Shown piece after piece: positions 22,623 through 36,683 of a DNA stretch of 64,000 bases. Source of the DNA: Proteobacteria bacterium UBA6156 (GTDB lineage: Bacteria > Pseudomonadota > Alphaproteobacteria > UBA2136 > UBA6156); assembly GCA_002422365.1 (NCBI GenBank), contig DIUO01000015.1:9607-73606 (forward strand), written 5' to 3'. How positions within the stretch are numbered: the first letter of the stretch is position 1; every line of letters starts with the position of its first letter. The notes below the pieces were generated by a model, which ran no database searches, was not told the DNA's origin, and saw only the letters and a list, made by a program, of their open reading frames with translations. Both the position numbers and the translations under genes were made by a program.

Positions 22623-22892
22623 ATGAGGTATCCCTGCTTGGTGAGGTTGATGCCGAACCCTACCAGCGCTGCGCCCGCACGCGCAAGCGTAACCGCTACC
22701 GTTGCCTTACGGGTTTGGTTAATTTGCGGGCGGAGACGGGTGATGGGTGTTGGATGTTGGGCGGTGAGGAGATGAGATTAAGATTGACTTTGAGCGCAAC
22801 TTAGGGTAGTGTTTTGACAGGCTCGCCGGATGTGCGGGTTTTTTTGTGCCTTCCGTTTTTGGGAGGCATTTTTTGTGGGGAGGGAATGAGAC

Positions 22893-23342
22893 ATGACGAC
22901 TTATGTGAAGGCGGCGGCGGGGCGTGGCACGAGTGTGATTTATGAGACTGACGACGGGCGGCGCGAGGAATGGAGCGGCGGCGACCGCAACTGGCGCAAC
23001 CAGAACCCGGGGAATATTCGGAGTAACCCCATTGCCTGGCGCGGCAAGATTGGCGAAGCAGGAGGCTTTGTGGTGTTTGCCGCGCCGGAATGGGGCCTGC
23101 GCGCGATGCGAATGATATTGGCCAACCGTGCGAAGGAGGGCAAAACGCTGGCGCAGGCGATTGCGCACTATGCGCCGAGTGTTGAGAACAACACGGAGGC
23201 GTATATTAAGCATGTGGTACGGCGGAGCGGAGTGGCGGCGGATGCTGTGTTGGCGGGTTTAAGGCCAGAGGAAATGGAGCGGGTGATGGCGGCGATGTGT
23301 GTGCATGAGGGGAGCCGGGTGGGCAAAGTTATTTTTAAATAG
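22893..23342 (+). CDS. hypothetical protein carrying only the GGDRNWRNQNPGN-motif domain (paralog 1)
   Basis: 149 aa, GGGAGGG Shine-Dalgarno, host-like GC. It is about 50% identical to the N-terminal 145 aa of the 23951-24619 product. Confidence 0.7.
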   Translation: MTTYVKAAAGRGTSVIYETDDGRREEWSGGDRNWRNQNPGNIRSNPIAWRGKIGEAGGFVVFAAPEWGLRAMRMILANRAKEGKTLAQAIAHYAPSVENNTEAYIKHVVRRSGVAADAVLAGLRPEEMERVMAAMCVHEGSRVGKVIFK

Positions 23343-23380
23343 GCGATTGTAGAGCCTATAGGTAACGGCTAGCATACAGC

Positions 23381-23884
23381 ATGTATGCGTTCATCCTCAT
23401 TTTCATAGCTATTTCGTTTACCGCATGGAGCGAAATACTTGAACTTACCTATGGCGTAAATCGTTTGGATGTTAACGCTGACGGGATACCGGATATGATA
23501 TTGCGTACACGTCGGGATAACTTCACAGCGCACAGTTTTGACCGTTATACAATACTTGTAACATTACCTAATCGTGATCACCCTGCTAGCATTTACGATG
23601 TTCCCATAGGCACGGGACCTAAATCTGATTTCCATACCACTGAAGGTGCTGACTGCCTACGTACTGGATATACATTTGAACGCGACAGCAATGGTATATT
23701 GGTGGTTACTCGCTACATGCTGGAAGAAGGAGATCGTTTTTACTGCGAACCCACCCCACTAACTGTGACAACCTATAAACTTACATCAGGGACTGACGAA
23801 CTGATTGCGCCTTATTATATGAAGCAAACCGGCGAGAGAATAGTAAGAAAAACTTATGAAGATGTGAGTGGATTGGTGGAATAA
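23381..23884 (+). CDS. small secreted/periplasmic hypothetical protein (167 aa) in a low-GC insert
   Basis: Signal peptide MYAFILIFIAISFTAWS, an FG-GAP-like LDVNADGIPDMIL, and 2 Cys. The coding sequence is AT-richer than its surroundings. Confidence 0.6.
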   Translation: MYAFILIFIAISFTAWSEILELTYGVNRLDVNADGIPDMILRTRRDNFTAHSFDRYTILVTLPNRDHPASIYDVPIGTGPKSDFHTTEGADCLRTGYTFERDSNGILVVTRYMLEEGDRFYCEPTPLTVTTYKLTSGTDELIAPYYMKQTGERIVRKTYEDVSGLVE

Positions 23885-23950
23885 TTTAATTTACGACTAG
23901 GTAGCCCCCAATGGGGCAATTTTTATATTGAATGAGGGAGAAATTATGCA

Positions 23951-24619
23951 GTGAGCAACTATGTCAGTGCTTCAGCCGGAGCTGATAACACGGTGTTATA
24001 TACTGATGCGGATGAGCGCGTATTTCAGTATACGGGGGGAGATCGCAACTGGCGCAACCAGAACCCCGGAAATGTAAGGAGCAACTCAATTCAATGGGAC
24101 GGCAAAATTGGATCTGCTGGAGGGTTTTGCATATTTAGCAATCCCGAATTCGGGCGCCGCGCTGTGCGAAAAATTCTTTCAAATCGTAGGAAAGAAAATA
24201 AAACGTTATCAGAAGCCATTTCTAGCTATGCACCTCAGAGTGAGAATAATACAAATGCTTATTTAAAAGATGTAGAGAGGCGTACGGGCATTTCTGGAAA
24301 AACCAGACTTTCCGACCTTAATGATTCTCAAATGGAAAGTATTGCTCAGGCTATTTTTATACATGAGGGAACACGTGAAGGTACTGTTCATCAGTTAAAA
24401 CCTAAGAAAAACCCGCCCACTGGCTTTTATATTTGGCATACATCACATGATGAAAAAGTAAGAGATAGTCACGCCGAACGCGATGGAAAACTTTTTGATT
24501 TTGGAAATCCACCTGCTGGAGGCAATCCCGGAGATGATTATAATTGTCGTTGTTGGGCAGAACCTCTTTCTTCTTTGCCAAACACCCCAAAGACCCTAAA
24601 TAGTATTTTTAAGAAATAA
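23951..24619 (+). CDS. GGDRNWRNQNPGN-motif domain fused to a phage Mu F / SPP1 gp7-like core (paralog 2)
   Basis: GTG start with a GAGGGAG Shine-Dalgarno. The C-terminal FYIWHTSHDEKVRDSHAERDGKLFDFGNPPAGGNPGDDYNCRCWAEP fits the Phage_Mu_F core pattern (D.rVR.sH..l.G...PG...NCRC). Confidence 0.75.
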   Translation: MSNYVSASAGADNTVLYTDADERVFQYTGGDRNWRNQNPGNVRSNSIQWDGKIGSAGGFCIFSNPEFGRRAVRKILSNRRKENKTLSEAISSYAPQSENNTNAYLKDVERRTGISGKTRLSDLNDSQMESIAQAIFIHEGTREGTVHQLKPKKNPPTGFYIWHTSHDEKVRDSHAERDGKLFDFGNPPAGGNPGDDYNCRCWAEPLSSLPNTPKTLNSIFKK

Positions 24620-24650
24620 ATGGGTGGCCATAACCACCCATTTATTTTTG
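24614..24650. terminator. bidirectional terminator between paralog 2 and the convergent hydrolase gene
   Basis: Perfect 14-bp stem aaataaatgggtgg / ccacccatttattt. The stop codon of the 222-aa ORF lies inside the stem. Confidence 0.7.
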
Positions 24651-27689: not shown

Positions 27690-27758
27690 TTAGCGTTTGC
27701 CGAGGGGGGCTACGTCCCGCCGGGTGGGGCCGGTGTAGAGCTGGCGGGGGCGGCCGAT
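27690..27758 (-). pseudogene. relic duplicate of the last 22 codons plus stop of gltA
   Basis: 69 nt aligns without gaps to 27807-27875 with 4 mismatches, all synonymous. It translates to [22 protein letters not shown]. Confidence 0.8.
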
Positions 27759-27806
27759 GTTTTGCCGAAGGCAAACTCATATAAAGAGAAAATCGGCCGA
27801 CCTATC

Positions 27807-29135
27807 TTACCGTTTGCCGAGGGGGGCAACGTCGCGGCGGGTGGGGCCGGTGTAGAGCTGGCGGGGGCGGCCGATTTTCTGGTCGGGTTCGCCGATCATT
27901 TCCATCCAGTGGCTTATCCAGCCGACCGTGCGGGCCAGCGCGAATAGGCAGGTGAACATGGGGGTGGGGATGCCGATGGCGCGGAGGATGATGCCGCTGT
28001 AGAAGTCGACGTTCGGGTAGAGTTTGCGCTCGATGAAGTAGGGATCTTTCAGGGCCATTTCTTCCAGCTTCATGGCGACTTCCAGCATGGGGTCGTTGAT
28101 GTTCAGTTCTTTCAGCACCTCGTGGCAGGTTTCGCGCATGATTTTGGCACGGGGGTCGAAGTTCTTGTAAACACGGTGGCCAAAGCCCATCAGCTTGGTG
28201 TCGGAGAGTTTGTCCTTCACCTTAGCGATAAACGGCTCGACGTTGTCGACGGTGCCGATTTCGGCCAGCATTTTCAGCACGGCCTCGTTAGCCCCACCAT
28301 GCAGCGGGCCCCAGAGGGTGGCCACACCGGCTGCCACGCAGGCAAAGGGGTTGGCGCCGCTGCTGCCCGCCAGGCGCACGGTGCTGGTGCTGGCGTTCTG
28401 TTCGTGGTCGGCATGCAGGGTGAAGATGCGGTCCATGGCTTGCTCGACCACCGGGTTGACTTCGTAATCCTTCGTGGGGACGGCGAACATCATGCGCAGG
28501 AAGTTGCCGGCGTAGGACAGGTTGTTATCCGGGTACATGAACGGTTGGCCGACGCTGTATTTGTAGGCCATGGCCACCAGGGTGGGCATTTTGGCGATGA
28601 GGCGGTAGGCTGTGACCTCGCGGTGGCGGGGGTTATGGATGTCGAGGCTGTCGTGGTAGAAGCTGGCCAGCGCGCCGGTGACGCCGCAGAGGATGGACAT
28701 AGGGTGGGCATCTGGCCGGAAGCCGTGGAAGAAGGTGGCGACTTGCTCGTGCACCATGGTGTGATCCATCACCATATCTTCGAACGCTTCGAGCTCGGCG
28801 CGGGCGGGGAGTTCTCCGAACAGCAGCAGGTAGCAGACTTCCAGATAGCTGGCTTTTTCCGCCAGTTGCTCGATGGGGTAGCCACGGTAGAGGAGTTCGC
28901 CTTTGTCGCCATCGATATACGTGATTCCGCTTTGGCAGGCGGCGGTGGACATGAAGCCGGGGTCGTAGGTGAACATGCCTTCGTTTTTATAAAGCGCGCG
29001 GACATCGGCCACGTTGGGGCCGACTGTGCCTTTCAGCACCGGCAAGGTGACGGTGACGGTGTTGCCGCCGCCGGAATTGGCGGTGGTGCCGTTGCCTTGA
29101 GAGCCGGATTTGTTGAGCTTGACGACGTTGGCCAT
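27807..29135 (-). CDS. gltA: citrate synthase (type II, Gram-negative hexameric type)
   Basis: 442 aa with [24 protein letters not shown] and [15 protein letters not shown] signatures. Confidence 0.96.
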
Positions 29136-29305: not shown

Positions 29306-30277
29306 TCAGTTACGTTCCAGACAGTTTTCTCCGCCGGAGAAGCAGAGGCTGGCGGAAAAGGGCGGGTCGGTTCTTTGTGTGATGTTCGGGCTGAACATGA
29401 GGATGCGGCCCCAGGGGTCTTGGGCGTAGGCGGCAGGCAGGCCGAGGTCGATCATCATTTGCTGCATCTCGGACAAGTTGCCGCTGGCGTAGGCGCGTTT
29501 GCCGAGGACTTTGTCGGCGTAGTAGACGGTACCGGGGGTCATGTCGGCATCGGACATGGGGTAGTAATTGAACAGCGTGTAGTTTTTACCGTCTATGCTG
29601 GTGCACCAGCTGGGGGCGCCTTCTACCACCGCGCAGGTGTTTTGGGCTTCGAGGAATGAGGCGGATTCCACCGCTTCCAGTTTATCGATAATGAGTTGGG
29701 CGCGGGCGCGGTATTCGGCCAGGCGCTGCATTTCGACATCGCGCGAGACATACTTGATGCCGATGTCGTCGCCACGGGTTTGCCAGGCGTTGTAGTCGTT
29801 TTCGGAGCTGATGCCGCCGGATTCGGCCACGCCGTCTTTGCCTCGGCTGGAGATGACGGCCATTTGCATGGTGATGGGGGTATCTTCTATGCGCACGGTG
29901 GCGTTGGTTTGGCTGTACTCCCAGGCGTTGCCCCAGGGGTCGCGGCGCAGGGAGATATCGACCAGGTTGCCTTCGCGGAAGAGGTCGTCCAGCGTGGCAG
30001 GCAGGCGGTTGATGCCGACCTGCGTGTAATAACGGCCTAAGCTGTCGCGCAGCATTTCTAATTGCGCTTCGGCGGCTTGCACCTTGCTGCTTTCTAACCG
30101 CGACATGATGGTGACGCCGCCTGCGGCGGTGAGAATGGCGGCGACGATCAGCGCGATGCGGGCATCCATGCCGAACATGGCGCCGCGCTGGTTGGCCAAG
30201 CCCGCAGTGTGCGACAGGGAGGTGATGAGACGCTTCAACATAATCATGATGGCCCTATTCTGCCGTATTCTGTTCAT
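29306..30277 (-). CDS. large atypical pseudopilin-like protein (323 aa)
   Basis: LANQRGAMFGMDARIALIVAAILTAAGGVTIM is a pilin-like N-terminal helix after a long leader. It carries two GspG-like motifs (RRDPWGNAWEY, AQDPWGRILMF). The start codon is uncertain (30277, 30247 or 30241). Confidence 0.6.
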   Translation of the reverse strand: MNRIRQNRAIMIMLKRLITSLSHTAGLANQRGAMFGMDARIALIVAAILTAAGGVTIMSRLESSKVQAAEAQLEMLRDSLGRYYTQVGINRLPATLDDLFREGNLVDISLRRDPWGNAWEYSQTNATVRIEDTPITMQMAVISSRGKDGVAESGGISSENDYNAWQTRGDDIGIKYVSRDVEMQRLAEYRARAQLIIDKLEAVESASFLEAQNTCAVVEGAPSWCTSIDGKNYTLFNYYPMSDADMTPGTVYYADKVLGKRAYASGNLSEMQQMMIDLGLPAAYAQDPWGRILMFSPNITQRTDPPFSASLCFSGGENCLERN

Positions 30278-31031
30278 CTTTCAAGCTCAGATTCATGGTT
30301 TGGGTGTAATCCCACGGAGTTGTGAAGGTTAATGTGGCCTTCTGGCCGCTCGCATCCGGCATGTAGCTGAAGTCCCTCCCCCAGGCATCGCGGAGGTCGA
30401 ACTTGCCTTTCAGGGTCTGGAATTCGCTGTCGGTGGGGAAGCGGAAGGCCCCGGCGTAAAAGGTGTAGAGCTGTTCGGCCATTTGCTCCATCCGCCGGGT
30501 GCTGGTGCGCACCTGCTGGTTGCGGGCGAGAGAGGTATCGTATAACGCCACCGCCTGGTTGCCGGTTTTGGTTTCCAGCACGTTGCGCTCCGACTCGGTA
30601 CGGTAGATCTGGCTGCGTACCAGGGTGTCGTCTGTCCCCGCGATGGCAACGGTGGTGGCGTTCTGGCCGTAGAATTCACGGTTGGATTCTCGCGCGGCGA
30701 GCATGAAGTCTTGTCCGCCGCGTGTGCGGGCCTGAGACTGGGAGTAGGTGCGGGCACGTTCGAGGTCGTAAGTGGTGCTGTAGGTTTGCCCGGTTTCGGT
30801 CAGAATGGCGAATTCCATACCCTTGGCGATATCTTCGGCTTGGGTTTGGGCGCGTTGGGTTTGGGTTTTCTGGTAGGCTTCGAGCTCTTGCCGGGCCCAT
30901 TGGACGGAGAGGGCGGAAAAAATGCTCATGCCCATGACCAGCCCGAACATGAACGGCGAAAACCCGCCCTGCTGGTTGGCGATTACCCCGAGCTGAGTGG
31001 GCCGGGTTGGGGTAGCGGGAGTGGCGTGCAT
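30255..31031 (-). CDS. atypical pseudopilin-like protein (258 aa)
   Basis: IANQQGGFSPFMFGLVMGMSIFSAL (G-F-S then a hydrophobic helix, Met rather than Glu at +5). The C-terminal LRDAWGRDFSY is GspG-like. Confidence 0.55.
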   Translation of the reverse strand: MHATPATPTRPTQLGVIANQQGGFSPFMFGLVMGMSIFSALSVQWARQELEAYQKTQTQRAQTQAEDIAKGMEFAILTETGQTYSTTYDLERARTYSQSQARTRGGQDFMLAARESNREFYGQNATTVAIAGTDDTLVRSQIYRTESERNVLETKTGNQAVALYDTSLARNQQVRTSTRRMEQMAEQLYTFYAGAFRFPTDSEFQTLKGKFDLRDAWGRDFSYMPDASGQKATLTFTTPWDYTQTMNLSLKDEQNTAE

Positions 31032-31046
31032 GTGCCCCCTGCCCGC

Positions 31047-31949
31047 CTAATAGGCGTACCTTATGGTGAGAACGTAAGGCGCGCCGTTGAGGTCGAGCAT
31101 GACCTCTCTGCGCGAGATGGACGTGACCTGCACCGGCAGCACCAAGGTTTTGTAGCCGATTTCCGGCTTTTGGGCACGTTCGGTTGCAAATTGCTGGAGG
31201 GCTTCGTCGTAGGCTTTGCTGTAGTTGGCCTCCAGCGCCGGAGAAAGGGTGCCAGGTGCGGGCATTTGGGCGTTAAGCGCCTGGGCCAGCACGGCCTCTG
31301 GCACGCGCATGGGGATGCTGATGCGGAAGGTATCGCCGACCTCATAGCGTTGCTGATTGATGACCGCGTAGCTGACCGGAGAGGTGACAATGGCCTGCAA
31401 CACCAATGTGCTGAGCGCGCTGCCGAAGCTGTAGCGTGCGGCGTCGGGTTCCCATTTTTCTACGGCGCGCGTAAGGGTGGCGCCGAGTTGGTTGCGGAAC
31501 TGGGTGAGGTCGGGCTCGGCACTGGCGGCCACCACGGGGAGGTCGATCGCCTGGGCCATGAGTTTATCCATCAGGCTTTGGCGGCCGGAGGTGAGGACGT
31601 CGGTAACTTGGCCGGTGCCGCTGACAAGCTCGGTTTGCGAAACCGCCGTTTTGACCGGGACCAGAATACGCAAGGGGTCGAGCTGGCTGTCATCTTCTAT
31701 GAGAACACCCAGGCTGGGCACCAATGGCAGGGGCACGCCGTTGCGGGCGGCATCGGCTCGGGCCTGCGAGATGGCTTCGTCGCGCGCGAAGATGAAATCC
31801 GGCGTGCCGCTGAAGGTGCGCGGCCATTCCAGACGCTCGGCCCGCGAGCCGCCTGTGGCCTGCGCATGGGCACCGCCCGCCAGCAGCACAGCCGCCAGCA
31901 GCAGGAGGGCGCCGCGCGCGCTAGTAGAAGGTATCTTTATCGTACGCAT
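31047..31949 (-). CDS. periplasmic protein, putative GspC/PilP-like component (300 aa)
   Basis: Signal peptide ...LLAGGAHA. The C-terminal strands AVINQQRYEVGDTF and VTSISRREVMLDLNGAPYVLTI resemble the GspC HR / PilP fold pattern. The assignment is tentative. Confidence 0.5.
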   Translation of the reverse strand: MRTIKIPSTSARGALLLLAAVLLAGGAHAQATGGSRAERLEWPRTFSGTPDFIFARDEAISQARADAARNGVPLPLVPSLGVLIEDDSQLDPLRILVPVKTAVSQTELVSGTGQVTDVLTSGRQSLMDKLMAQAIDLPVVAASAEPDLTQFRNQLGATLTRAVEKWEPDAARYSFGSALSTLVLQAIVTSPVSYAVINQQRYEVGDTFRISIPMRVPEAVLAQALNAQMPAPGTLSPALEANYSKAYDEALQQFATERAQKPEIGYKTLVLPVQVTSISRREVMLDLNGAPYVLTIRYAY

Positions 31950-32421
31950 AAATATATCCTTCGATTTGAACCATGCTGAGCTCTGGCGGGGCGCCGCGCG
32001 GGGTTGCGGTGCACCCGAAGCAGAAACTGTAGGGCACGTAACCGGGCAGGCGCGTCATGCGCTCGAGCACCGCTTGAGCCTCGGGGTAGGTGCTGGGGCC
32101 GGAAATACGGTAGGTGTAGCGCGCCAAGGCCTTGTTGTTGCCGCGGATGAGCGGCTGGCCGATGATGCGGAGGTCGAGCCGGGGGGCGCCGATATCGAGC
32201 GCGCGCTCGAGTTCGTTTTTTTGCACGAAGCGGATGTCTTGGCTGATGCGGCGGATTTCGGCAATGCGCACCTGGAGGTTTTTGCCGGCGTCGCGTTTCT
32301 CCAGCGCGTCTTCCAGTGCATAGGTGCGGCTGTCGATCATCGCGACGTTATCGAAGTATTTATAGAGCCCCAAAATGGCCGTGAAAATGATGATGGCCAG
32401 GCCTGCGGAAAAGCGGATCAT
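31921..32421 (-). CDS. N-terminally anchored bitopic protein, putative GspM/PilO-like component (166 aa)
   Basis: TM MIRFSAGLAIIIFTAILGLY, then a coiled coil, then an alpha/beta domain. Its ATG overlaps the upstream stop (ATGA). Confidence 0.5.
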   Translation of the reverse strand: MIRFSAGLAIIIFTAILGLYKYFDNVAMIDSRTYALEDALEKRDAGKNLQVRIAEIRRISQDIRFVQKNELERALDIGAPRLDLRIIGQPLIRGNNKALARYTYRISGPSTYPEAQAVLERMTRLPGYVPYSFCFGCTATPRGAPPELSMVQIEGYIYAYDKDTFY

Positions 32422-33881
32422 TCAGTGTCCTCCTGCGGCTGGATGGCCTGCGGCCGGTTACCCCGGGGCTGGGTGGGCGAGCTTTGCAGCGAAGCCTTGT
32501 TGAGGCGCGAGGCAAAGGGTTTGTATTCCCGCTCCAGCTCGGTGGCATCGACCAACCCTTCCAGCTTGAAGCCGCTGGTGGTGTTGGGTTTGCGCACGGC
32601 TTCCAGGAGCGCGGAATTGAGAATGAGGCTACGGGCGACGGGCTCTTGTTGCAGCCAGCCCTGGTAGATGTCGTTCTGGGCATCTATGCTGATAATATAC
32701 TGCTTGGGCGGTTGCTCGGGCTCGGGCGAGCGGACCTCGAACTGCTTGACCTGGAAGCCGGAGCGCTCGATGGCGCGGGCGGTGTCCTTCGTGACCAGGG
32801 GGAAGAGTTCGCGCTTGCGCCACATGCGCTCTTGCTCGGCGATGGCGCGCTCGAGGTCGGAGAATTGGCCGCCGCGCGGGATTTGCTGTTCGATCATGGC
32901 CAGTTGGTCTGACAGGGCCTGGATTTGGCCGCCCTGATACCAGAGCCCGGCATAGGTGGCTAAGGCGACAAGGATGCCGGTAAACAGGGCGTGGCTGCCG
33001 TAGCGTTCTTGGAACGTCGGCTTGTTCAGCCAGGTTGCGTCGTCGAGCGGCAGGTCTCGTAACGAGTGCACGGTGACGCGGTCGGAGGGGGGGAGGATGT
33101 CGGTATCCCACTGCGTATAAAGGTGGGCGCGGGTGGTGCGGGGGTAGCTTTTCAGCACCTGGTCGAGGTCGCGCGTCCAGCTGATGGCAGTGGTGGGGAG
33201 GACGTAGTTATCTTTCGTATCCCAATGAAAGAGGGTATCGGCAACCAGCAGAATATTAATGGTGTTGGGCTCGCTGCGCGAGATGCGGCAGAGGTCTATC
33301 AGCGCCATGGGGCCCACCAGCTGCTGGGCCAGGGCCACGGCGTTGGGGTCGGCCAGGTCGTCGTCGGAGATGCCTTCTCCGGACAGGAACAGGTAGGGAT
33401 TGGCAGGTTTGCCATCGAGCCCGCGCGGCGCAAAGAAGAACAGTGCGGTGTTGCGCTTGAGGCTTTCGCCCACCAGATCGGTCCAGTTGTCGTTAAACGC
33501 GGGTTGGTTGTCGCCAGCCATGAGGAGCTCGGACTTGTTCAGCCCCACAAAGCAGAGGTGGCGGAACGTACCGCCGACCGAATTAATGACGGTGGAGGCA
33601 GCCAGTTTGTATGTAAAACTGCGCAGCAGGGTGCGGGCTTCGGCCCAGAGCGGGCCCATAAACTCGGCGGTGCCGTGCCAGAATTCCCGTGCCATTTGCT
33701 GCACCATGGGCAGGTTTTCTTCCAGCCGGCTTTGCAGGCGGGGGGGCATGCGTTCTACCAGCTGCTTGTGCAGCTTGCTGCGCACGGCCTGAACCACCGC
33801 GTCGTCGGTGCTGTGCACGCCCTCGGGGCCCGCTTCCGGCGGGGTGGGTGAGGTGCGGTTCGGGTTCGTATCTTCGCTCAT
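32418..33881 (-). CDS. bitopic protein with a large cytoplasmic domain, putative GspL or PilM-PilN-like component (487 aa)
   Basis: About 330 cytoplasmic aa, one TM (ALFTGILVALATYAGLWY), a coiled coil (QIQALSDQLAMIEQQ) and a periplasmic domain. The ORF opens at 33953; the start MSEDTNP at 33881 avoids overlap with the GspF-like gene. Confidence 0.55.
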   Translation of the reverse strand: MSEDTNPNRTSPTPPEAGPEGVHSTDDAVVQAVRSKLHKQLVERMPPRLQSRLEENLPMVQQMAREFWHGTAEFMGPLWAEARTLLRSFTYKLAASTVINSVGGTFRHLCFVGLNKSELLMAGDNQPAFNDNWTDLVGESLKRNTALFFFAPRGLDGKPANPYLFLSGEGISDDDLADPNAVALAQQLVGPMALIDLCRISRSEPNTINILLVADTLFHWDTKDNYVLPTTAISWTRDLDQVLKSYPRTTRAHLYTQWDTDILPPSDRVTVHSLRDLPLDDATWLNKPTFQERYGSHALFTGILVALATYAGLWYQGGQIQALSDQLAMIEQQIPRGGQFSDLERAIAEQERMWRKRELFPLVTKDTARAIERSGFQVKQFEVRSPEPEQPPKQYIISIDAQNDIYQGWLQQEPVARSLILNSALLEAVRKPNTTSGFKLEGLVDATELEREYKPFASRLNKASLQSSPTQPRGNRPQAIQPQEDTE

Positions 33882-33889
33882 GCTCTGCC

Positions 33890-35029
33890 TTATGCCTGCG
33901 ATAATACGATTGATAACATATCCAACATCATTACGGCACCGCCCATGATCCATAATAGCGCGCTGGTGATGCCGATAAACTGCTTGTGGGTGTCGTTCAG
34001 GATACGCTCGAGCAGTGTGTGGGCGTGCGACATACCTTCGATCAGCACGTCGTTCACGTTGCCTTCGGTGGGGGCGTAGTTTTCGGCAACGCTAACGGGA
34101 GTTACAATCAGCTCGGGGAAGCCTGCGCGGCTCATGGCCTCGGCCATGGTGCCGCCGGTGGTGATGACGTGGTTGAATTGGTCGATACGCCGCCGGATGA
34201 CGATGTTGGTGGCCAGGCCCTCCATAATGGGAATGAGCTGCTTGGGCTTGACGCCACTGGCGATAAGATAAGGGAAATACAGCAACATTTGGGTGTAGGT
34301 TTGGTAAATGAGGTAACGCCCGTAAATGGGGATTTTAAGCTGCATGTTGTGCAGCGTAGTGCGCCCGGCGGGGTTGGAATTGAGCGACCAGATGACGACA
34401 ATGGCCACCAGAATGACACCGGCAAACAGATACCAGTACTCGGCACAGGCCTGGGTGGCGGACATGATGCCGTTGGGGATCATCCCCATGGGTTTGCCCT
34501 GGGCTTCTCTTAACTTTGCCATGACCGGCAGGGTGTTGAGGCCGGTGTTGAACACCGACACCAGCGAGAGCACCAGCATGAGCAGCGGCGTGAGGAGCTC
34601 GGCCAACCCGGCGCGGCGGGAATTGATGGCTTTGTCTTCGAGGATACGCAGAATCTCGAACGATTTTTGCATGTTGTTGGAGGCTTCTCCGGCCAGGATG
34701 GCGGCACGGTGGAGCTCGGTGAACATACGGCGCTCTGTCTGCATGGCCTGGCTGAGCGACTTACCCTGCGCCACCTTTTGCGACAGGCCGGTGATGGCGT
34801 TGGCGACGGCCTCGTTTTTTTCCGCCCGGAAGGCACGGGCCACGGCGCGCAGGGCGTCGGAAGTGGTTTGGCCGGTTTTCATCATCATGGCCATGAAGAA
34901 GAAGAAGCGTTCGCGGTCGCGGGGGTCTATCGCCGCGCTGCCCACGGTGCCGCCGCCAAACAGCGCCTGCAGCCCGGTGGGCCGGTAACTAGCGGAGGGC
35001 TTCGAGATCGGCACTGAAGTATCTTTCAA
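33890..35029 (-). CDS. type II secretion / type IV pilus platform protein (GspF/PilC family)
   Basis: Two T2SSF-type repeats (FFFFMAMMMKTGQTTSDALRAV...; YFPYLIASGVKPKQLIPIMEGLA...) and three TM segments. It overlaps the ATPase gene by 41 nt. Confidence 0.8.
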   Translation of the reverse strand: MKDTSVPISKPSASYRPTGLQALFGGGTVGSAAIDPRDRERFFFFMAMMMKTGQTTSDALRAVARAFRAEKNEAVANAITGLSQKVAQGKSLSQAMQTERRMFTELHRAAILAGEASNNMQKSFEILRILEDKAINSRRAGLAELLTPLLMLVLSLVSVFNTGLNTLPVMAKLREAQGKPMGMIPNGIMSATQACAEYWYLFAGVILVAIVVIWSLNSNPAGRTTLHNMQLKIPIYGRYLIYQTYTQMLLYFPYLIASGVKPKQLIPIMEGLATNIVIRRRIDQFNHVITTGGTMAEAMSRAGFPELIVTPVSVAENYAPTEGNVNDVLIEGMSHAHTLLERILNDTHKQFIGITSALLWIMGGAVMMLDMLSIVLSQA

Positions 35030-36683
35030 GTTCTTCCAGGCTGCTTATGCCGTTTTTCATGTGCCGCAGGCCTTGGGCCAGCATGTCGTTCATGCCCGCA
35101 GCCTTGGCTTGCTCGCGCACCACTTCAATCCAGTCCGGGCGCAGGCGGTTGCTGCTCCAGACATTGCGGGAGATTTCGCGGCGCCACATTTCCAGCACTT
35201 CTTCCATGGCGATACGCCCGGAATAGCCACGGTAGTGGCAGAGCTCGCACCCGTTGCGGTTGGGGCGGCAGATGGTGTCTCCGCGCTTGAAGCCCAGGGG
35301 CCGCAGGGTGTTGAGGCTGTCGGCGAGTTGCTGATCGATTTCGTACGGCACCTTGCACTTGGGGCAAAGGCGCCGCAGCAGCCGCTGCGAGACGATGCCG
35401 CGCACATTGCTGAAAATGAGTTCCGGCGGGACGCCGCGTTGCAGCAGGCGGTCGAGCGTCATGAAGGAATCGTTTGCGTGCATGGTGGTGATGACCAGGT
35501 GACCGGTGTTCCCGGCATCGATAACGCGGCGGGTGTCTTCGGGGCTACGCACTTCTCCGATGAACATCACGTCGGGGTCGAGACCCAAAGCGGCATAGAG
35601 GAAGGTTTCGAGATTCACGCCCGCAGCCAGGTCTTCTTCGGTCTGGATGACGTTATCCATCCGCTCTTCGATTTGCTTTTCGTAACTGATGACGTTCTGG
35701 CCGGGGCGCTGGCCACGGCGGATCATCAGCCGGCAGGCCGTTGATTTACCCGAACCCGTGGGCCCGGCAAAAATGATTACGCCTTCTTCAAACCGCATCA
35801 GGGTATCGATTTTATCAATCGTTTCGTCGGCATAGCCGAAGGTTTCCATATGCCCCTCGAACGGGCGCAGGAAACGCATGGCGATTTTGGCAGTGTTCTC
35901 CAGCGTGATGGGCTGGGTGGTGTAGCGGATATCGACCGATTGGCGGTTGGTGAGGTCAAAGGTCATCCGTCCGTAGAGCGGTTTTTTGAAGTTTTCGGCA
36001 CTCACGCCCGCCATGTGCCGCAGGCGGCCGACAACGCGGTCGTAGACTTCCATGGGCAGGGCGACCAGCTCTTCCAGCTCGTTATCTATCCGCGCCATGA
36101 CGGTAGGTTTGCGGTTGAGGATTTCGATGTGGAGGTCGGACGCGCCGTTTTTGTAGGCGGTGCGGATGATTTCATCCACCAGGTTCACAATCGCGTCGTC
36201 GTTGCCGACGTTGAGCTGGGCGTAGGCGTTTTCCACCAAAAACTTCAGGCTGTGGCCTTCGCGCTTACTCATCCGCTCGATGGCGGACTCGATACTTTTG
36301 GCCGAAGCCCAGACGAACGAGTGGCTGTTTTTGCGGTTGCGGAGGAGAATTTCGGAATGCAGGCGCTTGTTAGGGAGGTCGGCGGCCGCCCAGGTGACGT
36401 TGTTACGGCCAAGTTCTATGGGGCATGCGGTGTAGAAGGTGAGGAAGGCGCGGTCGATGCCTTCTACCTGGTGGGGGGTGACTTTGGCCATTTCTTCGTC
36501 GTTCTTGACCGGGAAGTCGTACGCCACAGCCCGGTAGCGCGCTTGCTGGTTGGGCGTGAGCTTACCGGCCTTACCGAGGGCTTCGATCAGTGCGTCGGGG
36601 TCCTTCTGCACCGTGACGGGCAGGTTGTGGAGATCGGCCATTGAAATGACGTGATCGGCGATCATAAGGTCGACGATATCCAT
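34989..36683 (-). CDS. type II secretion / type IV pilus assembly ATPase (GspE/PilB family)
   Basis: Walker A GPTGSGKST, Walker B DPDVMFIGEVRSPED, His box TGHLVITTMHAND, tetracysteine CPKC...CELCHYRGYSGR. Confidence 0.92.
   Translation of the reverse strand: MDIVDLMIADHVISMADLHNLPVTVQKDPDALIEALGKAGKLTPNQQARYRAVAYDFPVKNDEEMAKVTPHQVEGIDRAFLTFYTACPIELGRNNVTWAAADLPNKRLHSEILLRNRKNSHSFVWASAKSIESAIERMSKREGHSLKFLVENAYAQLNVGNDDAIVNLVDEIIRTAYKNGASDLHIEILNRKPTVMARIDNELEELVALPMEVYDRVVGRLRHMAGVSAENFKKPLYGRMTFDLTNRQSVDIRYTTQPITLENTAKIAMRFLRPFEGHMETFGYADETIDKIDTLMRFEEGVIIFAGPTGSGKSTACRLMIRRGQRPGQNVISYEKQIEERMDNVIQTEEDLAAGVNLETFLYAALGLDPDVMFIGEVRSPEDTRRVIDAGNTGHLVITTMHANDSFMTLDRLLQRGVPPELIFSNVRGIVSQRLLRRLCPKCKVPYEIDQQLADSLNTLRPLGFKRGDTICRPNRNGCELCHYRGYSGRIAMEEVLEMWRREISRNVWSSNRLRPDWIEVVREQAKAAGMNDMLAQGLRHMKNGISSLEELERYFSADLEALR

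Follow-up and report, generated by a model that had tools for sequence, protein, structure and literature searches.

A CarG-fold protein and a glycosidase–MuF fusion form a putative effector–immunity cassette beside tolQRA in an alphaproteobacterial chromosome

What are a protein joining a cell wall enzyme to a phage head module, and a small secreted protein encoded just before it, doing beside the tolQRA genes of an alphaproteobacterial chromosome? The question is raised by three open reading frames (ORFs), here called A, B and C, in a 64,000-nucleotide stretch of the genome of Proteobacteria bacterium UBA6156 (contig DIUO01000015.1), the whole of which we refer to as the window. No public database has a name for A, B or C. 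An earlier note, made from the sequence alone, had described A and C as a paralog pair of an unknown domain, with a possible immunity or partner protein between them. The answer developed here is that B and C are a real, well-delimited and horizontally acquired effector–immunity cassette of new architecture, in which a predicted peptidoglycan glycosidase is coupled to a secreted CarG-fold protein. The elements on which this rests are as follows.

22893–23342, forward strand: gene A, a stand-alone Enc34/PHA02564-type glycosidase domain by prediction, 149 amino acids, with host-like G+C content and no signal peptide.
23343–24650: the acquired AT-rich segment, holding B, a spacer hairpin, C and their own terminator, delimited by composition and by alignment with loci L001 and L002.
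23381–23884, forward strand: gene B, 167 amino acids, a predicted secreted CarG-fold beta-sandwich and proposed periplasmic immunity protein or inhibitor.
23951–24388, forward strand: residues 1–146 of gene C, a three-strand N-terminal beta element followed by a predicted Enc34/PHA02564-type glycosidase domain, with no signal peptide.
24422–24565, forward strand: the MuF/SPP1 gp7 core, residues 158–205 of C approximately, reading YIWHT..DEKVR..H..RDGK.F..PP.GGNPG.DYNCRCWAEP.
24593–24619, forward strand: the C-terminal octapeptide TLNSIFKK of C plus stop codon, with the tail motif [ST]-L-x-x-[IV]-F-x-[KR]-COOH.

A and C (the latter 222 amino acids, 23951–24619, with a GTG start codon and GAGGGAG just before it) are identical at 79 of 146 aligned positions (54%, E=8e-60), which bears out the proposed paralogy of about 50% over about 145 residues. 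Pfam and NCBIfam hold nothing on the shared N-terminal domain (N-domain), NCBIfam giving no match for A or B at all, and the earlier note had left the domain unnamed; it can now be identified as the Enc34/PHA02564 endolysin domain. A matches the PHROG families 873 (E=1e-29), 2276 and 7182, and within PHROGs the N-domain lies inside large phage proteins annotated as endolysin, tape measure or tail injection transglycosylase. The sequence of A also matches two PDB entries, Gp29 (9vvp, E=1.2e-14) and the Enc34 endolysin's catalytic domain (7q47, E=6.6e-4). The Enc34 endolysin paper (PDB 7Q47) describes a muralytic enzyme with a lysozyme alpha-lobe-like fold related to GH73 and GH23, and a signature of Glu131, Tyr95 and Trp79. 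Enc34 Trp79, Tyr95 and Glu131 align to Y93, Y104 and E139 of the present proteins, and these three are invariant in 17 of 17 A-type and C-type sequences; the codon of the catalytic Glu139 lies at 23307–23309 in A and at 24365–24367 in C. When an AlphaFold2 model of C (pLDDT 84.5) was searched with Foldseek, 7q47 was matched with E=1.1e-6, a probability of 1.00 and a root-mean-square deviation of 2.3 Å over 132 columns, and BFVD entries named ‘virion protein’ and ‘internal virion protein D’ were matched with E down to 7.5e-9. Moreover, tblastn with the N-domain returned 511 sequenced phages, most of which have it at the N-terminus of gp16-type internal virion proteins under the name ‘endolysin domain’, and none of these 511 records spans the full glycosidase–MuF fusion. 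Homology, predicted fold and the invariant catalytic signature together give good support to the assignment of the shared domain as an Enc34/PHA02564-type peptidoglycan glycosidase.

Beyond this domain, the C-terminus of C scores 47.4 bits against the Pfam Phage_Mu_F profile (PF04233; cutoff 29.6), 43.9 bits against TIGR01641 (cutoff 39.65) and E=2e-22 against the head morphogenesis family PHROG 324, and the MuF/SPP1 gp7 core read there from the letters alone is thereby confirmed. The match covers positions 34–110 of the 112 in Phage_Mu_F, that is only the C-terminal two-thirds of the profile, and the autonomous core comprises about 50 amino acids. In BFVD this core of the C model meets a minor capsid component and a head morphogenesis domain at E of about 1e-3, and Foldseek returned no significant structural match for it in the PDB. 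SPP1 gp7 is a portal-associated head component. The same core of about 50 amino acids is fused to other cell-wall domains in the relatives P0018, P0021, P0028 and P0034, its partners being VgrG3-C/GH46-like, pesticin-type lysozyme, phage lysozyme and PG_binding_1 domains. P0021 (L018:10001–11536) is encoded on a chromosome and has its MuF core at the N-terminus and a pesticin-type lysozyme at the C-terminus; its neighbour is a convergent 149-amino-acid lipoprotein-like ORF, a possible immunity gene, and no phage genes lie within 10 kb.

The last residues of C resemble a second phage element. The tail motif is common to all fusions of the window clade (with C-termini SLKDIFKK, TLKEVFKK, SLKQVFGK and YLEEVFGR beside the TLNSIFKK of the window) and to scaffold-position proteins of one group of phages, with PF13252 capsids (those of L016, L054/56/58 and L055), the ORFs preceding the capsid gene ending in SLQDVFRK (L016), DLAALFGR (L053), SLGDIFSR (L054, L056, L058), SLEEVFSR (L055) and LDSLFNRR (L059). 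Of all 4190 ORFs of at least 100 codons in the sequences collected for the analysis, 15 end in the strict motif L-x-x-[IV]-F-x-[KR]-COOH, namely ten fusions, four scaffold-position ORFs and one unrelated ORF. It is plausible from this likeness that the tail is a procapsid-targeting signal copied from a scaffold protein, and that it would act with the MuF core in the packaging of C.

B begins with a predicted signal peptide of 17 residues (23381–23431; hydrophobic N-terminus, cleavage at A-W-S|E), at the end of which its homologs conserve an (A/G)-W-A motif typical of cleaved signal peptides. It matches the Pfam CarG-like family (PF21955) with 43.5 bits (cutoff 28) and the CarG structure 4o7j by sequence with E=1.4e-4, and Foldseek places an AlphaFold2 model of B (pLDDT 89, pTM 0.83) on 4o7j with E=1.5e-8 and TM-scores of 0.73–0.77. 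The signal peptide, two cysteines and DVNADGIPD loop to which the earlier note drew attention are all present, but the loop is not the stand-alone FG-GAP motif it was taken for: it is the DxNxDGxxD loop of the CarG-like domain, which alone also matches long Ca-type repeat proteins in an exhaustive profile search. CarG of Pectobacterium (PDB 4O7J) and B therefore share the fold, this loop and secretion, but only about 18% sequence identity. CarG is a carbapenem intrinsic-resistance protein and sits with CarF in the carbapenem biosynthesis cluster, not beside a glycosidase; to our knowledge, its mechanism of protection has been open since the structure of 2014. Neither in the window nor at any other cassette locus did carbapenem biosynthesis genes turn up close to B. 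Four weak CarG-like matches came from plasmids or chromosomes, these being a gene of Pantoea annotated ‘CpmJ protein’, a hypothetical protein of Cronobacter and two Proteus stretches that carry no annotation. The exhaustive profile search gave about 100 full-length CarG-like representatives among its best 150 hits, and 308 hits at E<=1e-10.

The evidence that B belongs with C comes from their repeated occurrence together. A CarG-like gene lies directly upstream of the fusion in eight independent loci (the window, L012, L013, L015, L062/63, L064/65, L072 and L068/69), and every cassette found has the same tight two-gene layout. A metagenome scan yielded at least 393 relatives of the fusion, and when the best 80 of these loci were analysed with custom hidden Markov models a CarG-like gene was found to flank the N-domain protein in 13 of these 80 further loci, in both gene orders. 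L072 has the arrangement of the window; L073–L078 form a divergent clade with fusions of about 201 amino acids and the CarG-like gene downstream; L112 encodes an N-domain protein without a MuF core; in L080 the N-domain is fused to a Tox-PAAR-like domain belonging to type VI secretion systems (T6SS) (97.6 bits); and in L095, L100, L122 and L134 it forms the C-terminus of proteins of 320–342 amino acids. No CarG-like gene was seen in the other 67 of the 80 loci (N-domain proteins of 125–2484 amino acids), which we take to encode endolysins and virion proteins, or in 34 viral loci (N-domain proteins of 214–669 amino acids). On this pattern, a CarG-like gene accompanies the glycosidase when the latter is a small effector-type protein, whatever its delivery module. 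The genetic coupling of the glycosidase effector to a CarG-fold partner is well supported.

The last four of these loci share a conserved cluster (L095:3872–9203, L100:2676–7904, L122:6451–11940, L134:8426–11097) of two distinct N-domain proteins (224–342 amino acids), two proteins of 320–450 amino acids and a downstream CarG-like gene, the glycosidase being C-terminal in the longer N-domain protein. Pfam has no match for the two proteins of 320–450 amino acids. The cluster may represent a third delivery context for the same effector–immunity cartridge.

Outside the window the cassettes stand in housekeeping neighborhoods that are unrelated to one another, with ferrochelatase on one side and peptide deformylase on the other in L012, after flagellar genes on a 1.26-Mb contig in L013, adjoining groESL in L015, and elsewhere by FtsH/M23 and other genes, none of them beside tol genes; those of L012, L013, L015, L072 and L077 are chromosomal. 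This diversity of setting bears on the reading in which A and C are autolysins that remodel the wall together with the neighbouring Tol-Pal system and B is their periplasmic regulator. Such a role would agree with the conservation of A, divergent from tolQRA, in at least five related genomes and with its invariant catalytic residues. However, A and C both lack a signal peptide and a membrane anchor, the cassette keeps quite other company outside the window, B and C are AT-rich and missing from syntenic relatives, and the MuF and PAAR-like fusions are delivery modules, so that we regard housekeeping wall remodeling as very improbable.

The two genes of the cassette also decay unequally. In three lineages C has been lost or damaged beside an intact B: L061 has no C, L068/69 keep a version truncated to 92 amino acids, and an in-frame stop breaks the gene in L072; the reverse, an intact fusion with a damaged B, was not seen among the loci examined, an asymmetry of 3 to 0. 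This is the pattern expected of immunity genes, which remain useful after loss of the toxin. With an effector that lacks a signal peptide, a partner that has one, tight linkage and a partner kept after effector loss, the pair has the general features of effector–immunity systems, and the suggestion of the earlier note that the middle gene encodes an immunity or partner protein is strengthened both by the conserved adjacency in many loci and by the asymmetric decay. The decayed cassette of L068:1100–4128 and L069:913–2961 (an intact CarG-like gene and the 92-residue effector remnant) adjoins an AIPR abortive-infection protein and a DUF4420 protein, neighbors that give this region a defence-island-like character.

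How did the cassette come to lie beside tolQRA? The G+C content falls from about 0.60 to 0.40–0.46 across approximately 23320 to 24650 (segment mean 0.42), in agreement with the AT-rich segment that had been described, and the cassettes of L012, L015, L062, L070 and L072 are likewise AT-richer than their flanks, with a small difference in L013 and none in L064. The arrangement divergent from tolQRA recurs in the syntenic alphaproteobacterial genomes L001, L002 and L066/67, where tolA, tolR and tolQ diverge from A and an opposite-strand 216-amino-acid alpha/beta hydrolase, IscR and cysteine desulfurase follow; neither B nor C is present there. Later, horizontal acquisition of B and C is thus supported, but a pure insertion is not: by alignment with L001 and L002, the segment stands in place of about 200 bp of ancestral DNA that held a small-membrane-protein gene and a terminator. 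L061, a closer relative, is continuous with the window through A and B (78% nucleotide identity, with the B proteins 83% identical), and then carries the small ORF and the terminator of the ancestral arrangement at the place that C occupies in the window. A breakpoint therefore lies inside the acquired segment at about 23890, immediately 3′ of B, with C and its own terminator spanning 23891–24650, and B is common to two lineages at this site, the window and L061.

The small membrane protein, of about 52–59 amino acids with an N-terminal transmembrane helix and the ending CLDRGGRVxGDMCExxDGRxIPL-COOH (L001:8470–8628, L002:8470–8649, L061:1324–1497), follows A in L001 and L002, with a terminator behind it; the window lacks it, its place (approximately 23890–24650) being taken by C. 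An A-type glycosidase beside such a protein recalls, by analogy, a minimal endolysin–holin pair or the enzyme-plus-transmembrane architecture of Enc34. In L066/67 the gap between A and the hydrolase is filled by a 147-amino-acid multi-pass membrane protein on the opposite strand (L066:2375–2818, minus strand; L067:845–1288), and the presence of a different gene there marks the gap as a hot spot for variable small genes. Since its contents differ among L001/L002, L066/67, L061 and the window, the gap is a variable site.

A is the vertically inherited copy, linked to tolQRA and syntenic beside it in L001, L002, L061 and L066/67. The scheme of a resident gene joined by a later-acquired module holds as regards the module, but A is not the ancestral form of the pair. 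In a neighbor-joining tree of the N-domain, ten A-type genes group (100% bootstrap) inside the fusion clade; A and one subclade of C are joined with 100% support, and the C of the window is sister to the A clade at 71%. Because the A clade is nested in this way, the resident A descends from a MuF-fused ancestor, and it appears to be an old cassette effector that turned resident gene after losing its MuF module. The ending ‘KVIFK’ of A was considered as a relic of the fusion tail and rejected, as other A-type proteins end in GRVIF or GKVVAL, aligning with the linker of C-type proteins.

Two transcriptional elements lie within the acquired segment.

23904–23927, forward strand: the B–C spacer hairpin, GCCCCC-AAT-GGGGC plus a T-run, from a terminator scan.
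24612–24649, forward strand: the intrinsic terminator of the cassette, from RNAfold; immediately 3′ of it the window again aligns with L001 and L002.

A hairpin with a T-run occurs in five B–C spacers (the window, L013, L015, L064 and L068), its stem sequences all different, and would make a candidate partial terminator keeping expression of the effector below that of the immunity protein; as the window copy has a fold z-score of only −1.7, we infer this function and do not count it as observed. The inverted repeat after C has the perfect 14-bp stem that had been noticed, with 14 Watson–Crick pairs extending to a 16-pair stem in RNAfold (folding free energy −21.6 kcal/mol, z −5.5, 0 of 200 shuffles folding as well), and its sequence is unlike that of the terminator at the same position in relatives. 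B starts 38 nucleotides past the stop codon of A, so that the window cassette is probably co-transcribed with A. In L012, L013 and L015 the motif TTCTTGACTTTTGCCAC stands upstream of B, and it is not in the window; judged from these sequences, the window cassette has probably lost its own upstream promoter motif and is transcribed by readthrough from A. The motif was rejected as a general feature, being found in 3 of 150 loci only.

The window copy might, then, be a decaying fragment of a lost prophage without present function. Its lack of TTCTTGACTTTTGCCAC, the inactivation of C in three other lineages and the surroundings would fit this, since the 20 large window ORFs tested and the genes called near the locus are housekeeping genes, with no phage or T6SS genes among them; the same result agrees with the earlier view that this is not an ordinary prophage head module. 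Inertness nevertheless seems quite unlikely, as neither ORF is disrupted, a plausible ribosome-binding site, the conserved spacer hairpin and the strong terminator are all in place, a second sample has the same sequence (99.98% identity), a related species keeps B at 83% amino-acid identity, and all cassettes found share the tight two-gene layout. In that second sample (L017; 99.975% identity to the window, 3 indels) C appears truncated; we rejected this as biology, given that it is the same organism at this identity with 3 indels, and the truncation is probably an assembly frameshift.

We infer that B inhibits C and that C is delivered in phage heads, and the full model, in which B–C came from a phage and is a mobile effector–immunity cassette of the moron-like kind, with an effector that phage heads take up, is the one we think probable, with considerable room for doubt. 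In this model C would be made in the cytoplasm as a peptidoglycan glycosidase with two head-targeting elements, the MuF core and the scaffold-like octapeptide. While a compatible phage assembles, C would be loaded into procapsids and then released along with the DNA into the next cell's envelope, where it would cut the wall's glycan strands. B would be exported by means of its signal peptide, bind or block the glycosidase in the periplasm and so protect carriers from lysis-from-without or superinfection by enzyme-carrying particles. The order of B, weak terminator and C would keep immunity in excess over effector, and the window copy would be an orphan in the variable chromosomal site between tolQRA and the hydrolase gene.

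A variant of the cassette both links it to phage heads and complicates this model. In L016 and L070, DUF6973 replaces the N-domain and a membrane protein of 210–227 amino acids is inserted just upstream, the CarG-like gene remaining first; the order in L016:1917–3286 and L070:5563–6910 is CarG-like gene, membrane protein (36% identical between the two) and DUF6973–MuF core protein (45% identical). The membrane protein has no Pfam match, and DUF6973 no PDB relative by sequence. DUF6973, with its motif HDDLDAFRHAFCHA, is a candidate for a new toxin domain, against which the membrane protein may give immunity. The module of L016 follows a PF13252 major capsid gene and a terminator, and related phage contigs have portal, scaffold, capsid and connector in order with nothing inserted, from which the L016 module behaves as a moron.

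Several observations weigh against the model. The retention of B in L016 and L070 is the main difficulty: since B is kept there with DUF6973, it could serve the MuF-core module and not the glycosidase, although it could also have been retained as an orphan immunity gene after the swap of an immunity-plus-toxin unit. The L016 contig, with a duplicate from other samples, is the only one that joins the module to a capsid gene, and its copy carries DUF6973 and not the glycosidase. The window copy may have no vehicle at all, as the window proteins that were tested yielded no phage genes. Neither a CarG-like protein nor the full glycosidase–MuF fusion occurs in 50,697 sequenced phage genomes, and the divergent clade of 201-residue fusions has no tail. 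A resemblance of CarG to the lysozyme inhibitor PliI is not significantly supported by the Foldseek search with the B model, where PliI (4pj2) ranks 41st (E=1.6, probability 0.20, TM-scores 0.30–0.36) and no known periplasmic lysozyme inhibitor (PliI, PliC/MliC, Ivy) shows significant similarity to the fold of B. Lastly, a sequencing error could account for the L072 stop codon.

Some of these facts would sit comfortably with superinfection exclusion, in which B is a Spackle-like periplasmic inhibitor of an incoming virion glycosidase and C a phage penetration enzyme that is carried along or decaying. In phages the N-domain belongs mainly to virion or ejection proteins, B has outlasted C in three lineages and is kept in L016 and L070 with a different effector domain, and the L016 module lies in a phage head region. 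We hold this anti-phage role to be unlikely, however, because C is intact with an invariant catalytic signature in six of nine loci of the tail-bearing clade, spanning 40–59% identity, which points to selection on C as well. The fusion to a T6SS PAAR-like domain in L080 points to interbacterial delivery, no PADLOC defence model matched A, B or C, and the absence of CarG-like proteins from sequenced phages tells against this role as well.

The packaged-effector model can be extended into a bolder proposal, which we offer tentatively as possible but less than probable: that CarG-fold proteins are a hitherto unrecognized family of periplasmic inhibitors of Enc34-type glycosidases, giving immunity whatever the delivery route (phage head, T6SS or other) and explaining carbapenem tolerance by CarG through a blocked lytic glycosidase, and that a chromosomal effector mimics a scaffold C-terminus to load the capsids of foreign phages. 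If these ideas are correct, CarG-like proteins (PF21955) would gain a molecular partner and the protection of carbapenem producers by CarG a testable hypothesis, and a single glycosidase-plus-immunity cartridge would be seen plugged into phage-head, T6SS (PAAR-like) and other delivery modules. The eight-residue tail could be usable as a cargo-loading tag for phage heads, and it would hint at chromosomal genes hitch-hiking in phage particles.

Features outside the cassette were also recorded, the first of them in the leader of A.

22819–22869, forward strand: two tandem hairpin-plus-T-run elements (22819–22841 and 22846–22869), from a terminator scan, folding and alignment.

Upstream of them, the tolQ–A intergenic region (22700–22892) has a promoter-like TTGACA...TAATAT pair that is conserved in relatives. 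Aligned with L001, L002, L066 and L061, the first hairpin keeps its sequence, and the second differs in sequence with its pairing kept; the leader matches no Rfam family, and the hairpins may act as a transcription attenuator or form a small RNA gene. The only notable cluster among the window genes tested (29306–36683) lies about 5 kb downstream of the cassette and resembles a type II secretion system (T2SS) or type IV pilus, with a T2SSE ATPase (34989–36683), T2SSF (33890–35029), a faint pseudopilin match and several ORFs that Pfam does not match. The window also has a direct repeat of about 73 bp and 93% identity (approximately 27690–27762 and 27810–27881), which lies at and just past the 3′ end of the citrate synthase gene and surfaced as secondary BLAST hits in the comparison of L017 with the window.

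Among known systems, the MuF polymorphic toxins (Jamet et al. 2017, PMC5576092; Zhang et al. 2012; Iyer et al. 2017, PMC5512222), with MuF at the N-terminus, a toxin at the C-terminus and immunity encoded downstream, are the nearest named family and those to which the earlier note had related C. They lie immediately after the portal gene, or in the vicinity of a terminase gene, inside a (pro)phage, mostly in Firmicutes, act in the cytoplasm and have been proposed to be delivered by phage heads. Like them, C joins a PF04233 module to a variable enzymatic domain beside a small immunity-type gene, and domains are swapped at its N-terminus, as in P0017 with DUF6973. Its order is inverted, however, with the predicted glycosidase effector at the N-terminus (residues 1–146), a peptidoglycan target and a MuF core of only about 50 amino acids at the C-terminus (158–205); its partner is secreted and encoded upstream in the window clade, a downstream position occurring only in the divergent 201-residue clade; and in the window these are orphan genes of an alphaproteobacterial chromosome, with no portal or terminase nearby among the proteins tested. 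C therefore has the MuF domain and misses three of the four features that define MuF toxins (domain order, portal adjacency and a downstream immunity gene), and the assignment to this class was not sustained; among cassette loci, only L016 adjoins a phage gene, and that gene encodes a capsid and not a portal protein. If the model is true, the MuF toxin concept would be widened to an inverted, minimal, wall-acting architecture in Alphaproteobacteria.

The Enc34 endolysin and the gp16-type ‘internal virion protein D with endolysin domain’ (EcoDS1 gp16, 9vvp Gp29) share catalytic domain, fold and signature with C, but Enc34 has a C-terminal transmembrane domain and acts in lysis, the gp16-type proteins are about 1300 amino acids long and belong to T7-like phages, and neither has a MuF core, an N-terminal beta element or a CarG-like neighbor. 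T4 Spackle, a periplasmic inhibitor of the virion-borne gp5 lysozyme, is a functional analog of B only, and the C-termini of scaffold proteins and of the HK97 prohead protease, like the cargo-loading peptides of encapsulins, are short terminal loading signals for HK97-fold shells; these analogies involve no relationship of sequence or fold to B or C. Pairs of a peptidoglycan glycosidase effector and its immunity protein are familiar from the T6SS, as in Tse3/Tsi3 and Tge/Tgi. In the S. rhizophila T6SS operon vgrG5-tai5a-tae5, the N-terminus of Tae5 is Enc34-like and an 18.5-kDa immunity protein with a signal peptide is encoded upstream (PMC13340143). The correspondence with B–C extends to an effector without a signal peptide, an immunity protein with one and an immunity gene directly upstream, and the CarG-like gene and N-domain pair of L080, fused to a Tox-PAAR-like domain, adds to the likeness. 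C differs in having a phage-head module in place of PAAR or VgrG, with no T6SS genes among the window proteins tested, and Tai5a/Tae5 is functionally the closest precedent for the cassette.

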